64,000 bases of DNA from an uncultured delta proteobacterium (GCA_963802945.1 CAWDKY010000033.1:67024-131023); one strand, 5' to 3'. Counted from the first letter of the stretch, positions 38,974-42,343 are shown. A program made the numbers and translations. The notes: generated by a model from the letters alone, not told the origin.

Positions 38974-40174
38974 TCAGTTATTTCCCATCCTGGCCTTCAA
39001 CTGCCTGGTCATCTCTGGGACGATCTCGAAAAGATCACCCACAATACCATAGGAGGCCACATCAAAGATAGGGGCATAAGGATCCGAATTAATGGCCACG
39101 ATGGTATCCGAAGACTGCATCCCGACCAAATGCTGGACCGCACCGGAAACCCCGACAGCGATATACAGTTTCGGGGCCACGGTCTTTCCGGTCTGCCCCA
39201 CCTGATGAGCGTAAGAAATCCAGCCGGCATCCACAGCCCCACGGGAAGCCCCGACTGCGGCATTTAGCATATCGGCCAATTCCCTGATCAGAGCAAAATT
39301 CTTTTCCTCCTGCAATCCCCTGCCTCCGGTGACAATCACATCGGCCTCGGCCAGCCGCACCTTCTCGGTAATTTCTTCTACAATCTCCAACAACCGGGTT
39401 TTTTGAACCAGTTGGGACCAATCCATTTCCACCGGGATAACCTCTCCAAAACGACCGGGTTGGGGTACCCCTTTTTTCATAACTTTAGACCTAACCGTAG
39501 CCATTTGGGGCCGCTTTTGGGGACAAATAATAGTGGCCATAATGTTTCCCCCAAAGGCCGGGCGGGTCTGAAGCAGAAGGCGTTGTTCGGTATCAATAGA
39601 TAGTTCCGTACAATCGGCCGTCAGTCCGGTTCCAATTTGGGTGGCCACCTTGGGAATGAAGGATCGGCCTATGGAAGTGGCACCAGCCAGGACGATTTCG
39701 GGCCGATAGGTCCGGATGATCCGGGTCAGGCATTCTCCATAGAGTTCATCGGTAAATCCTTCCAAAGAAGGATGATCGGCCACATACACCCGATCGGCCC
39801 CATGTTCAATCAGGCTGACAGCGGAAGCTGAAATATCTTTTCCTATCAAAGCCGCTGAAAGGGAAACTTTCAAAGTGTCAGCCAGTTCGCGGCCCTTATG
39901 ACAGCAACTCATAGGTCACTTCAGCAATTTTGCCGAGACGTTGTTCAGCAAAAATCATGACGCCGGAATAGTCCTCAGGGTTTTGTCCTTTTTCCAAAAA
40001 TGGAACGAATATGGCCTTGACCGGGCAATCGTCCACACATGCCCCGCACAAGGTGCATTGGTCATTGACCGAGACCTTGCCATCCTTGGCTTCAATGGCA
40101 TTGAAAGGGCAGACCGAGATACAGACTTCACAGCCGGTGCATTTTTCCAAATCAATTTGGGTTTGAAGGCTCAT
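38974..40174 (-). CDS. etfA: Electron transfer flavoprotein alpha subunit with N-terminal 2x[4Fe-4S] ferredoxin domain (frameshift near 39900)
   Basis: [12 protein letters not shown] and [46 protein letters not shown]. Confidence 0.93.
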
Positions 40175-40187
40175 ATTTTTCTTAAAG

Positions 40188-40289
40188 GCGATGCTGGATC
40201 AAACTGCCGATACTGGATACTTGATGCTTGATTGACTTTATCCAGAATCGAGTATCGCTTTTTTTATCCAGTATTAAGTATCCAGCATC
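40188..40289. repeat. GATACTG-heptamer modular element, copy 4
   Basis: Inverted relative to copy 3; direct relative to copy 5. Confidence 0.9.
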
Positions 40290-40306
40290 TATATCATCAA
40301 CTGTTT

Positions 40307-41095
40307 TCAAACAATCAATTTAAGATTCGTCAACTTATCCAGCAACTGAGTCACCTGTTCTTCCACCGTTCCCTCAATCCATTCTCTTTCTTTAAGTCTG
40401 GGCGGTGGAAAAACCTTGATCACCTGGGTAGCCGATCCTTGAATGCCCACTCGTTCGGAGTCCGCCTTCAATTCCTTGGCACCATAGACTTCGATCTTCT
40501 GGGACTTGGCCCTCATTTTCCCTTTCAGGGAAGGGAGCCGGGGTTCGTTGATTTCCTTTACCACAGTAAGCAAGGCCGGTAAAGTCAGTTCCATCCGATC
40601 ATAGCCGTCGTCCATCAGGCGCTGAACATGCATTCGTCCGTCCTGTATCTCTTCAATCTTGCGCACCCAGGTTACATAAGGGATGGACAACCTTTCTGCA
40701 ATCCCTGGTCCCACCTGGGCCGTGTCTCCATCCACGGCCTGCTTTCCGCAGAGGATCAGGTCAAAGGGCCCGATTTTTTCAATCCCTTTGGCCAGTGTAT
40801 AGGAAGTCGCCCAGGTATCGGCCCCGGCAAAAGCCCGATCGGAAAACAAAACCGCTTCATCGGCCCCATAAGTGATGGCTTCCCGCAAAGAGGATTCGGC
40901 CTGAGGGGGCCCCATGGAACAGACGGTCACCTTTCCTCCTAAGCGATCCTTCAATCGCAGTCCTTCCTCCAGGGCATACATGTCGTAAGGATTGATAATG
41001 CTATCCACTCCTTCTCGAATCAGGGTATGGGTCTTTTCATCCAGACGAACCTGTTTAGTATCCGGAACCTGTTTGATACAGACGATGATGTGCAT
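40307..41095 (-). CDS. etfB: Electron transfer flavoprotein beta subunit
   Basis: CIKQVPD, INPYD, SMGP, DRAFAGADTWATS, GKQAVDGDTAQVGP, INEPR. Confidence 0.96.
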   Translation of the reverse strand: MHIIVCIKQVPDTKQVRLDEKTHTLIREGVDSIINPYDMYALEEGLRLKDRLGGKVTVCSMGPPQAESSLREAITYGADEAVLFSDRAFAGADTWATSYTLAKGIEKIGPFDLILCGKQAVDGDTAQVGPGIAERLSIPYVTWVRKIEEIQDGRMHVQRLMDDGYDRMELTLPALLTVVKEINEPRLPSLKGKMRAKSQKIEVYGAKELKADSERVGIQGSATQVIKVFPPPRLKEREWIEGTVEEQVTQLLDKLTNLKLIV

Positions 41096-41100
41096 GGTTC

Positions 41101-41177
41101 AATTTCGGATTTCGGATTTCTGATCTCGGAGTATTAGCTATTCATCATTCCGCAATCCGCATTCCGAAATCCGAAAT
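41101..41177. repeat. Inverted heptamer arrays (ATTTCGG / CCGAAAT)
   Basis: AATTTCGGATTTCGGATTTCTGATCTCGG ... TTCCGCAATCCGCATTCCGAAATCCGAAATT. Confidence 0.9.
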
Positions 41178-42343
41178 TAGTTGGTGCTTTTCTTCCTTCC
41201 CCCTTCTTTATTGAGTTCCTGCCCGATGATATTTCTTTGAACCTGATTGTTCCCTTCATAGATTTGCAGGATTTTAGCGTCACGCATCATTTTTTCCACC
41301 GGATAGTCTCTCATATAGCCGGCCCCTCCAAAAATCTGGACCGCATCGGTGGTCACTTTCATGGCCGCATCACTGGCAAAAACCTTGGCCATGGCCGAAG
41401 CCTTGGAGACATCTTTGGCCCCGCTGTCCACAAAGCGGGCCGCGCAGTAAACCAGGGCCCGAGCGGCTTCCGTCAAGGTGGCCATATCGGCCAGCATGTG
41501 TGCTACCGCCTGAAAGGTGATAATCGGTTTCCCGAACTGCATCCGGGTCCGGGCGAAGGAAACGGCCTCTTCCATGGCTCCCTGGGCCAGTCCTACCGCT
41601 TGTGCCCCTACTCCCGTAAGAGACTGATCAAACTTCTTCATGGCCACGACGAATCCCATCCCTTCCTGGGCGATGATCCGTTCTTTAGGGATACGGCATT
41701 GGGTGAATATCAGTTCCCCGGTGGCCGAAGCCCGGATGCCCATCTTGCTTTCCTTTTTGCCGAACCCAAAACCCGGATCCCCCTTTTCGACAATAAAGAC
41801 GCTGGCTCCGCGAGGTCCCTTGCTGCGATCGGTGATAGCGATCACCGAGTAGATGTCGGCTTCTCCGGCATTGGTGATCCATTGTTTGGTTCCATTCAGG
41901 ACATATTCGTTTCCTTTTAATTCGGCTGTGGTCATGATGTCCCCGGCATCACTTCCGGCCGTTGACTCAGTCAGGGCAAAGGCCGCTAATTTTCGACCGG
42001 CGGCAATCTCCGGAAGGTATTTTTTCTTTTGTTCTTCACTCCCGTATAAAAGGATCGGATAAGCCCCCAGACCACTGGCAGCAAAACTGGTAGAGACCCC
42101 CAGACACCCCCGGCTCAATTCCTCCACGGCCAGGCAATTTTCAAAAGAGCCTCCTCCGAAACCTCCATACTCCTGGGGTATGCCAACACCGAAGAGATCG
42201 GATTGGGCGATCATCTTCAATAATTCCCTGGGAAATTCCTCTTTTTCATCCAACTCGGCCCGGACCGGCTTGATCTTTTCGTCGGCTATCTTTTGGGCGA
42301 TTTCTTTGATCATCTGCTGTTCTTCGGTAAGAAAATAATCCAT
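41177..42343 (-). CDS. Acyl-CoA dehydrogenase (Bcd-like)
   Basis: FALTESTAGSDA, LNGTKQWITN, KMGIR, RMQFGKPI, QIFGGAGY, IYEG catalytic Glu. Confidence 0.96.
   Translation of the reverse strand: MDYFLTEEQQMIKEIAQKIADEKIKPVRAELDEKEEFPRELLKMIAQSDLFGVGIPQEYGGFGGGSFENCLAVEELSRGCLGVSTSFAASGLGAYPILLYGSEEQKKKYLPEIAAGRKLAAFALTESTAGSDAGDIMTTAELKGNEYVLNGTKQWITNAGEADIYSVIAITDRSKGPRGASVFIVEKGDPGFGFGKKESKMGIRASATGELIFTQCRIPKERIIAQEGMGFVVAMKKFDQSLTGVGAQAVGLAQGAMEEAVSFARTRMQFGKPIITFQAVAHMLADMATLTEAARALVYCAARFVDSGAKDVSKASAMAKVFASDAAMKVTTDAVQIFGGAGYMRDYPVEKMMRDAKILQIYEGNNQVQRNIIGQELNKEGGRKKSTN

Follow-up and report, generated by a model that had tools for sequence, protein, structure and literature searches.

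The subject of this study is a stretch of 64,000 nucleotides from an uncultured delta proteobacterium (G000:C33:67024-131023, hereafter the window), in which three adjacent genes, encoding an acyl-CoA dehydrogenase (ACAD), the small subunit of an electron transfer flavoprotein (ETF), EtfB, and a ferredoxin-EtfA fusion (Fd-EtfA; split in the window as it stands), lie inside an operon for type II fatty-acid synthesis (FAS II). In several anaerobic lineages, this trio is conserved as an integral component of the FAS II operon. From comparative sequence data we conclude, with a probability of about 0.6, that it serves as the enoyl-ACP reductase (ACP, acyl carrier protein) of fatty-acid synthesis, replacing FabI, FabK, FabL and FabV. 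A broader proposal is more tentative, and we put it somewhat below even odds: several lineages of anaerobes may use a non-homologous, electron-bifurcating ACAD/ETF enoyl-ACP reductase, which would constitute a sixth class of this enzyme and would yield reduced ferredoxin in each elongation cycle. The lineages concerned, held just as loosely, would be Thermodesulfovibrionia, many Thermodesulfobacteriota, Omnitrophota and others, all strict anaerobes.

The source genome measures 4.37 Mb in 72 contigs and is 100% complete by markers, with 6.7% contamination. The operon is laid out as follows (ORF, open reading frame; aa, amino acids):

44162-44746, minus strand: yceD (PF02620)
43773-43976, minus strand: rpmF (name read from the translation, without a family test)
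42473-43538, minus strand: plsX (TIGR00182 on both ORFs; split by one extra base near 43369-43374)
41177-42343, minus strand: ACAD, 388 aa, candidate enoyl-thioester reductase subunit (three ACAD Pfam domains)
40307-41095, minus strand: etfB, small ETF subunit (PF01012; NF040731 at 317.9 bits)
38974-40174, minus strand: Fd-etfA fusion, split near 39901 into a ferredoxin ORF and an etfA ORF
39896-40174, minus strand: 2x[4Fe-4S] ORF of 92 aa (Fer4 families), overlapping etfA
38974-39912, minus strand: etfA ORF of 312 aa (PF01012 and PF00766)
38049-38796, minus strand: fabG (TIGR01830 at 307.7 bits, cut-off 297.75; extra base near 38710)
37574-37807, minus strand: acpP, 77 aa (NF002149 at 118.9 bits, cut-off 106; PF00550)
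36298-37537, minus strand: fabF (TIGR03150 on both ORFs; extra base near 37180)
34582-36341, minus strand: rpiB and glyA, conserved downstream neighbours (rpiB, PF02502; glyA, name read from the translation, without a family test)

An earlier note, made from the sequence of the window alone, had read the order yceD-rpmF-plsX-[ACAD-etfB-Fd/etfA]-fabG-acpP-fabF on one strand, and the ORF list and family scans bear this out on the minus strand; the interval that it singled out, 38974-42343, runs exactly from etfA through the start of the ACAD gene, and the translations contain the TRPAFGG string as well as a pair of CxxCxxCxxxCP motifs. The note had remarked that the window has no fabH, fabD or enoyl-ACP reductase gene, and all three are missing from this contig: fabH matches lie on contigs C30, C29 and C15, those on C30 and C29 being over the family cut-off, and fabD lies on C29, neither gene adjoining lipid genes. 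The yceD and rpmF genes form a conserved operon head that is also found upstream in relatives, and the rpiB-glyA order is the same in relatives with and without the trio.

The ACAD possesses the Acyl-CoA_dh_N, Acyl-CoA_dh_M and Acyl-CoA_dh_1 domains of Pfam. Among solved chains it comes nearest, with 404.5 bits over residues 7-377, to 5ol2_C, the butyryl-CoA dehydrogenase (Bcd) from the Bcd-EtfAB complex of C. difficile, and other solved matches are the A. fermentans Bcd 4l1f_A (378.3 bits), CarC (306.9 bits) and 4irn_A (192 bits). Residues Y362-E363-G364 are invariant across 40 orthologs, and this YEG motif presumably holds the C-terminal catalytic glutamate, the catalytic base. EtfB matches five structurally characterised bifurcating chains, CarD (6fah_B) at 256.6 bits and LctB and the EtfB proteins from A. 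fermentans, T. maritima and C. difficile at 219.6-231.2 bits, as against at most 93.9 bits for non-bifurcating ETF-beta chains. In the congener locus L042, whose ACAD is 92% identical to that of the window, residues 14-400 of Fd-EtfA align with residues 4-391 of CarE (6fah_A), ferredoxin domain included, at 392.2 bits. By sequence, the ETF belongs to the bifurcating group and is closest to CarDE, in agreement with the earlier guess of a CarDE-like, bifurcating ETF. The best NCBIfam names for the trio are those of the AcrABC system, all under their cut-offs (AcrC 444.3 bits against 640, AcrB 250.8 against 475, AcrA 315.1 against 600), together with cyclohexane-1-carbonyl-CoA dehydrogenase for the ACAD, likewise under its cut-off. 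None of the trio proteins carries an SDR (short-chain dehydrogenase/reductase) domain or an NMO (nitronate monooxygenase) domain by Pfam or NCBIfam, and none falls within FabI, FabL, FabV or FabK; relative to the SDR reductases FabI, FabL and FabV, the trio would at most be an analogue, not a member. A predicted complex of an ACAD dimer with ACP (alignments A1 and A2) scored 0.02, which bears on binding neither way.

In its own genome, the ACAD stands apart: there are 28 ACAD matches at 1e-30 (27 besides that of the trio), the next paralog being only 45% identical. The genome holds two to three further ETF pairs, and no second EtfA with a ferredoxin domain was found in it. The weakness of the paralogs and the single Fd-EtfA thus point to the trio as a distinct, dedicated module of the CarCDE/Bcd-EtfAB type. 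The ACAD is also the best-conserved protein of the operon, with a median identity to the window protein of 69%, followed by ACP (67%), the C-terminal part of FabF (65%), GlyA (62%), FabG (52%), FabH (48%) and FabD (41%).

The linkage between the trio and fatty-acid synthesis genes was examined across relatives. A scan with one genome per species gave 80 related loci with an ACAD 66-92% identical to that of the window, and their contexts were mapped by tblastn with the operon proteins of the window and the FabH, FabD and FabK-like proteins of its own genome. The ACAD gene lies among fab genes in 57 of the 80 loci, in 44 of them with ETF genes and in 13 without an adjacent ETF; of the remainder, 5 have ETF genes only and 18 have neither. 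The fab-linked loci span Thermodesulfobacteriota, Nitrospirota, Omnitrophota and others, and the related loci include some from the cultured genera Desulfobulbus, Syntrophobacter and Thermodesulfatator. Immediately upstream of the ACAD gene, the mapping places fabH in 37 loci, plsX in 11, rpmF in 3, fabF in 3 and nothing in 26; downstream of the trio lies fabG in 29 loci and fabD in 10. The commonest order is yceD-rpmF-plsX-fabH-[ACAD-etfB-Fd/etfA]-(fabD)-fabG-acpP-fabF-rpiB-glyA, while in Omnitrophota/Ratteibacteria the trio or the ACAD gene follows fabF (L106, L121) or fabF-rnc (L100). A ferredoxin match lies directly ahead of the EtfA match in 42 other loci. The arrangement, seen again in 57 of the 80 related loci, is far beyond chance, and the fact that the insertion point differs by phylum (between fabH and fabD, between plsX and fabG, or after fabF) argues for selection on the linkage. 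Thus, the synteny noticed in the window is not confined to this genome and takes several independent gene orders. The description of the trio as occupying the fabH-fabD slot holds for the gene order of the window but not as a replacement of fabH and fabD, as the trio usually sits between fabH and fabD or fabG; the window genome is a variant whose fabH and fabD have moved elsewhere.

Relatives in the organism's own phylum that are negative for the ACAD have an identical plsX-fabH-fabD-fabG-acpP-fabF operon without any insert, and the trio is therefore the sole added element. No further gene is consistently co-inserted: thiolase, 3-hydroxyacyl-CoA dehydrogenase (hbd) and crotonase (crt) are absent from all fab-linked loci, and gaps of more than 450 nucleotides in these loci are either unmapped fabF N-termini or locus-specific inserts. 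Trees of the ACAD were built twice by a quick method without bootstraps. When the tree is rooted with three ACAD paralogs from the own genome, all 81 sequences form one clade (Shimodaira-Hasegawa approximate likelihood ratio test, SH-aLRT, 98), with no resolved branching at its base. Most of the 18 context-free loci fall into a single subclade of Nitrospirota, whose 17 rows are nested among rows with fab linkage; in all five of its genomes that were tested, with the ACAD gene outside the operon, etfB-Fd/etfA still lies directly ahead of fabD. Another clade, of 10 loci (SH-aLRT 96), has the ACAD gene inside the operon without ETF genes; in 4 of 5 genomes examined from this clade, an EtfA with a ferredoxin domain (48-50% identity) is encoded elsewhere.

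Two observations on individual loci may be recorded here. In the Bacillota metagenome-assembled genomes (MAGs) with loci L085 (4190-7795) and L111 (11800-13319), the genes next to the ACAD-EtfB-EtfA set encode FolD, a corrinoid activase of the RACo type, a B12-binding protein and an FTCD-like cyclodeaminase; this suggests that these Bacillota sets are linked to one-carbon (C1)/Wood-Ljungdahl metabolism. In the Nitrospirota fab operon L053 (9162-12123), a 3.1-kb insert parts the ACAD gene from etfB; its ORFs of 236, 165, 289 and 129 aa gave no NCBIfam match at 1e-10.

Known enoyl-ACP reductases were sought in the source genome, and none was detected. The E. coli FabI query found nothing better than 26% identity and 68 bits, a divergent Desulfobulbus-type FabI-like query gave nothing above 70 bits, the best FabL score was 187 bits against a cut-off of 328, and the best FabK score was 262.7 bits against 453.1. 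FabV (PF12241) had no match in this genome; 14 control genomes gave none either, so that the ability of PF12241 to find the family rests on a single match, in genome G002. The genome has 46 SDR matches, and 42 of the 43 SDR reading frames examined have the classical Y-x3-K motif. Two SDR proteins considered as FabI, the exception to this motif (a fragment at the end of contig C12) and one on C30, were rejected by NCBIfam. There are at least six NMO paralogs, C17:158281 and C28:84090 being weaker ones, and the four best-scoring were rejected as fab-linked FabK-like genes by their neighbours. The contexts of these four, catabolic or otherwise unrelated, are, respectively, CoA mutase, CoA-transferase and hydratase genes; a helix-turn-helix (HTH) regulator and a methyltransferase; a CoA-transferase and DUF1254; and a molybdopterin oxidoreductase with FmdE and HpaB.

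The search was extended to related genomes, with FabI, FabK, FabL and FabV all sought in G001-G040 and FabI alone in G041-G080. Among G001-G040, FabI exceeded 430 bits in two genomes and reached at most 101 bits in all others. FabK was over its cut-off in 0 of 40, above 240 bits in five and without any match at 1e-40 in 25 of 40, and FabL was over its cut-off in 0 of 40 (best 222 bits). Among G041-G080, FabI at 273-299 bits was found only in two Bacillota genomes, in which the ACAD gene is not fab-linked.

We then compared the occurrence of the ACAD with that of known reductases in 121 Nitrospirota genomes and in 151 genomes of the organism's own phylum (G000 included), the first scored for FabI and FabK and the second for FabI, FabK and FabL, with thresholds of our own choosing (FabI, E<=1e-50; FabK-like, E<=1e-85, or about 290 bits or more). 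In Nitrospirota, an ACAD ortholog (66-74% identity) was present in 53 genomes, FabI (229-342 bits) in 52 and FabK (484-500 bits) in 7. The ACAD coincided with FabI in no genome and with FabK in none; FabI and FabK coincided in one, and ten genomes had none of the three. FabI or FabK was present in 58 of the 68 ACAD-negative Nitrospirota. In the own phylum, the ACAD (at least 58% identity) was present in 73 genomes, FabI in 22 (one of them ACAD-positive) and FabK-like proteins in 29 (nine ACAD-positive), and all five FabK proteins over the cut-off fell in ACAD-negative genomes. As many as 58 of the 73 ACAD-positive genomes had no FabI, FabL or FabK-like protein, and 41 of the 78 ACAD-negative genomes had FabI or a FabK-like protein. 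A canonical enoyl-ACP reductase is thus not always present beside the trio: the source genome gave none, and 0 of the 53 ACAD-positive Nitrospirota have FabI or FabK. Taken as a whole, the comparative pattern is the one to be expected if the reductase had been displaced by a non-orthologous enzyme: a module with homologs that reduce enoyl thioesters was brought into the FAS II operon at several positions, has been retained in different phyla and shows the conservation of a core FAS protein, and in one phylum it never coincides with FabI or FabK. The earlier inference that the trio acts at the FabI/FabK step is supported at this level by synteny, by the distribution of reductases and by the bifurcating type of the ETF.

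How might such a reductase work? Modelled on Bcd-EtfAB and CarCDE, with enoyl-ACP as the substrate, NADH would deliver electrons to the bifurcating flavin adenine dinucleotide (FAD) of EtfB. One electron would pass from EtfB through the FAD of EtfA to the FAD of the ACAD, where the trans-2-enoyl thioester would be reduced, and the second, low-potential electron would travel through the two [4Fe-4S] clusters of the N-terminal domain of EtfA to ferredoxin, this CarE-like Fe-S domain serving as the exit. The enoyl/acyl thioester couple lies at about -10 mV and NADH at -320 mV; therefore, the drop that FabI-type enzymes waste could drive ferredoxin reduction. For the stoichiometry, PMC5691135 gives two NADH reducing one enoyl thioester and two ferredoxins. 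We infer that the substrate would be enoyl-ACP rather than enoyl-CoA, that the complex would reduce ferredoxin and that the chain lengths would range up to C16-18.

Several observations weigh against a reductase role. At the level of the protein, no sequence signature distinguishes ACP-dependent from CoA-dependent ACADs, and the ACAD scores far below the cut-offs of the families that act on carrier proteins (MbtN 71.8 against 700, RedW 262.2 against 650, PigA 243.1 against 500). At the level of gene context, Bacillota/Atribacterota orthologs of 66-69% identity (L085, L111, L112, L118) lack a fab linkage; folate/C1 genes adjoin two of them, and two of these genomes have FabI. Known or possible reductases also occur in genomes that carry the trio. 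The two strong FabI matches in G001-G040 belong to Syntrophobacteraceae-like genomes (G031 and G036) that have the trio as well, and the one FabV match among the 40, in G002, is in a trio carrier. FabI matches of 130-177 bits were found in twelve further genomes of G041-G080, namely G079 and eleven other trio-bearing genomes. In G079, a Desulfobulbus MAG, they resolve into a FabL of 333.5 bits, over the cut-off, and a divergent FabI-like SDR (L129:3920-4663 and L130:3576-4322), both with the Y-x6-K motif, beside a fab-linked trio. In a 0.8-Mb MAG, an NMO-family gene (L083, 13125-14144; 195.5 bits, FabK cut-off 453.1) lies between acpP and fabF within the trio operon. In the own phylum, nine ACAD-positive genomes have FabK-like matches of 300-379 bits, all five FabL proteins over the cut-off (G217, G259, G293, G296, G329) are in ACAD-positive genomes and, overall, 15 of the 73 ACAD-positive genomes also hold FabI, FabL or a FabK-like protein. 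Conversely, 37 of the 78 ACAD-negative genomes have none of FabI, FabK-like or FabL. Five of these (G208, G216, G219, G222 and G225, with loci L139-L143) were looked at individually: they are 98-100% complete and have the canonical plsX-fabH-fabD-fabG-acpP-fabF operon, and searches found no FabV, no FabK-like match above 203 bits, no FabI-like match above 117 bits and no close ACAD ortholog. Because ACAD-negative genomes with canonical operons show no known type, their sequences imply that an undescribed reductase must exist in the own phylum, and it could also serve the carriers of the trio. The 46 SDR matches and at least six NMO paralogs of the source genome may likewise include reductases. 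The anti-correlation with known reductases that the earlier note had proposed as a test is complete in Nitrospirota (zero overlap) and imperfect in the own phylum. Even in Nitrospirota, the complementary pattern could go back to only a handful of ancient events, as kin are not independent.

Three other explanations have to be set against enoyl-ACP reduction by the trio. In one, the trio would be an acyl-ACP dehydrogenase, possibly an isomerase too, for the anaerobic synthesis of unsaturated fatty acids, as FabX is, with the reductase elsewhere: saturated acyl-ACP would be converted to the trans-2-enoyl form and then isomerised, the ETF removing the electrons. An enzyme of this kind would be at home in a fab operon, α,β-dehydrogenation is the chemistry of ACADs, and FabX (PMC8626469) provides the precedent of a flavoenzyme reversing this FAS II step. 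The occurrence of the trio alongside FabI, FabL or FabK-like proteins in some genomes would be natural if their functions differ, and undetected reductases are evidently present in the own phylum. We nevertheless think it unlikely, for it leaves unexplained both the lack of any overlap with FabI or FabK among the 121 Nitrospirota and the presence of an NADH-linked bifurcating ETF with a ferredoxin domain.

Also improbable, to a similar degree, is that the step is carried out by a protein from another locus that has escaped recognition, for instance an NMO/FabK-like protein of low score or a FabG-like SDR, and that the trio has another role in lipids, for example the modification of some acyl chains. 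The ACAD-negative genomes of the own phylum with full canonical fab operons and no detectable FabI, FabK, FabL or FabV speak for such a protein, the SDR and NMO paralogs of the source genome offer candidates, and SDR reductases beyond FabI, FabL and FabV are known (FabL2, FabI2 and FabMG; PMC9260719). Yet no FabK-like match at 1e-40 was obtained in 25 of the 40 related genomes G001-G040, the four best NMO paralogs of the source genome are all away from lipid genes, and the complementary distribution with FabI and FabK would be unaccounted for.

Least probable of the three is an ordinary CoA-level Bcd-EtfAB, a reductase of crotonyl-CoA or short enoyl-CoA, that makes short acyl-CoA primers for FabH or serves catabolism or redox balance, its co-transcription with fab genes being merely regulatory: the top similarity of the ACAD to the true butyryl-CoA dehydrogenases 5ol2_C and 4l1f_A, as well as to the models for AcrC and cyclohexanecarbonyl-CoA dehydrogenase, its usual place directly after the gene of the primer-using enzyme FabH and the close Bacillota orthologs without fab linkage would all fit, but thiolase, 3-hydroxyacyl-CoA dehydrogenase and crotonase are co-inserted in no fab-linked locus, the 27 other ACAD paralogs and two to three other ETF pairs of the source genome are there for catabolism, and the conservation of the ACAD equals that of core FAS proteins. 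The supply of acyl primers, which the earlier note had offered as its second option, is less likely on the same grounds, as it would also leave the reductase step empty in genomes without a known reductase.

If the trio does act as the enoyl-ACP reductase, it would differ from each of its known counterparts. Bcd-EtfAB (C. difficile, 5OL2; A. fermentans, 4L1F/4KPU) has the same three-protein make-up, its ETF subunits match those of the trio at 220-290 bits, and the presumed chemistry is shared, in that NADH drives the reduction of a trans-2-enoyl thioester together with that of ferredoxin. It differs in acting on crotonyl-CoA in butyrate fermentation and in having an EtfA without a ferredoxin domain, whereas the trio has Fd-EtfA, sits in a FAS II operon with acpP and would presumably act on enoyl-ACP of all lengths. 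CarCDE of Acetobacterium woodii (6FAH) is the best match for both ETF subunits, ferredoxin domain included, but serves caffeate respiration, where its substrate is an aromatic enoyl-CoA; the ACAD of the trio is nearer to Bcd than to CarC, and its context is fatty-acid synthesis. To neither fold of the established reductases, the SDR fold of FabI, FabL and FabV (Y-x6-K; Y-x8-K in FabV) and the flavin mononucleotide (FMN) TIM-barrel fold of FabK (NMO), does the trio have homology: in contrast to these single NAD(P)H-dependent proteins, it is a three-subunit FAD/Fe-S system that would save free energy as reduced ferredoxin. That the ACAD fold accepts carrier-protein substrates is shown by MbtN, an acyl-ACP dehydrogenase, and by RedW, PigA and 4IRN, which are dehydrogenases of prolyl groups on peptidyl carrier proteins (PCP). 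All are detectable homologs of the trio ACAD; they are oxidative, belong to secondary metabolism and operate without a bifurcating ETF, and the trio ACAD falls outside their families. FabX of Helicobacter pylori is a flavin/Fe-S FAS II enzyme that interconverts acyl- and enoyl-ACP (PMC8626469); it differs in having the FabK/NMO fold, in being a single protein and in making unsaturated fatty acids by dehydrogenation and isomerisation. What is proposed as new here with respect to Bcd-EtfAB and CarCDE is the substrate class and the role in the pathway.

Searches of the open-access literature (PMC, bioRxiv) found no paper that describes a FAS II reductase made up of an ACAD and an ETF. A 2022 review of these reductases lists FabI, FabL, FabL2, FabI2, FabMG, FabK and FabV, and a term search of it returned 0 mentions of acyl-CoA dehydrogenase, ETF or ferredoxin (PMC9260719). 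Similarly, terms for ACP or fatty-acid synthesis had 0 matches in two reviews of bifurcation (PMC5861303, PMC6085437), and PMC10553843 reports putative bifurcating etfAB genes in syntrophic sulfate reducers without drawing a link to lipids. The closest relatives of the trio proteins bear generic database names, for example 'electron transfer flavoprotein subunit beta'.

Enoyl-ACP reduction is the step of fatty-acid synthesis with the most non-homologous solutions, and the reductase is a classic drug target. Large anaerobic lineages seem to lack the listed reductases; an ACAD/ETF enzyme filling this gap would, if confirmed, be a new class derived from a catabolic module. With it, a core anabolic pathway would for the first time be seen to save energy by flavin-based electron bifurcation. 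The synthesis of membrane lipids would then pay back part of its cost in energy-limited anaerobes, to the benefit of sulfate reducers and syntrophs, and the metabolism reconstructed for these two groups and for candidate phyla would change with regard to 'missing' fabI genes and for Bcd/Etf genes taken to be of the butyrate type.

The operon of the window contains several broken reading frames. When the window is aligned with L042, plsX, Fd-etfA, fabG and fabF each prove to be interrupted by one surplus base, which lies near 43374, 39901, 38711 and 37180, respectively, and the corresponding L042 ORFs are intact (plsX, 356 codons; Fd-EtfA, 407; fabG, 253; fabF, 417). Contigs of relatives from three metagenome runs, 90-99% alike, omit one base at 37180 (fabF; X1, X2 and X3, with 37181 omitted in X20), at 38710 (fabG; X1 and X3), at 39901 (between the ferredoxin and etfA ORFs; X1, X2 and X3) and at 43368/9 (plsX; X1 and X2). 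The N-terminus of FabG, MNEDQRVILITGASRGIG, is encoded in a different frame from the remainder. Since the four insertions are absent from L042 and from the contigs of relatives, they are most likely assembly errors, a true loss of four genes including fabF and plsX being improbable; the sequencing runs each contain at most 0.17 of the sampled words and the contigs stem from relatives, so that error in this assembly is not proven. The EtfA with an N-terminal 2x[4Fe-4S] domain that the earlier note described is found as one ORF of 407 aa in the congener and as two ORFs in the window; as the split would come from an assembly error, the fusion was right in substance. One contig of 2740 nucleotides in X1 supports the adjacency of plsX, ACAD and etfB. 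In the RNA library X20, contigs at 90-95% likeness cover parts of fabF, fabG, etfA, etfB and the ACAD gene, at most a weak hint at expression, as contigs cannot reveal transcription units.

A further frame difference lies within the ACAD gene at 41822-41825, where metagenome contigs of relatives lack one base of the window and, three bases away, have one more; the frame would then be shifted locally and restored, with an effect on one or two codons. Other housekeeping genes of the window also look split by frameshifts, namely ribD (32470-33390 and 32148-32498), ribE (31766-31963 and 31291-31821) and the gene for glutamyl-tRNA synthetase, which at 48572-49861 is without its N-terminus and has an ORF ahead of it at 48364-48615 (all three names read from translations, without a family test). 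These splits, at 31291-33390 and 48364-49861, fit a general problem of insertion and deletion errors in the assembly.

Directly upstream of the operon, the G+C content falls to 0.38-0.40 over about 44800-48400, compared with about 0.48-0.50 around it. Four small ORFs of this stretch (45716-46027, 46046-46303, 46453-46938 and 48106-48393) had no Pfam match at 0.001, and the stretch may be a foreign island. Three spacers of the operon (38843-38970, 40188-40292 and 43593-43701) contain a repeat of about 100-130 nucleotides rich in GGATA/CTGGAT, two copies being direct and one inverted, up to 99% alike (families D1, D2, I1 and I2). The copies fall at gaps in L042 or in spacer that does not align, there are 10 matches of at least 70 nucleotides in the genome, and the repeat has the look of a small intergenic element, either mobile or REP-like (REP, repetitive extragenic palindromic). 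Finally, fragments of a DDE_3 (IS630-like) transposase lie at 30068-31109, the HTH part (30558-31109) and the DDE part (30068-30412) being separate ORFs.

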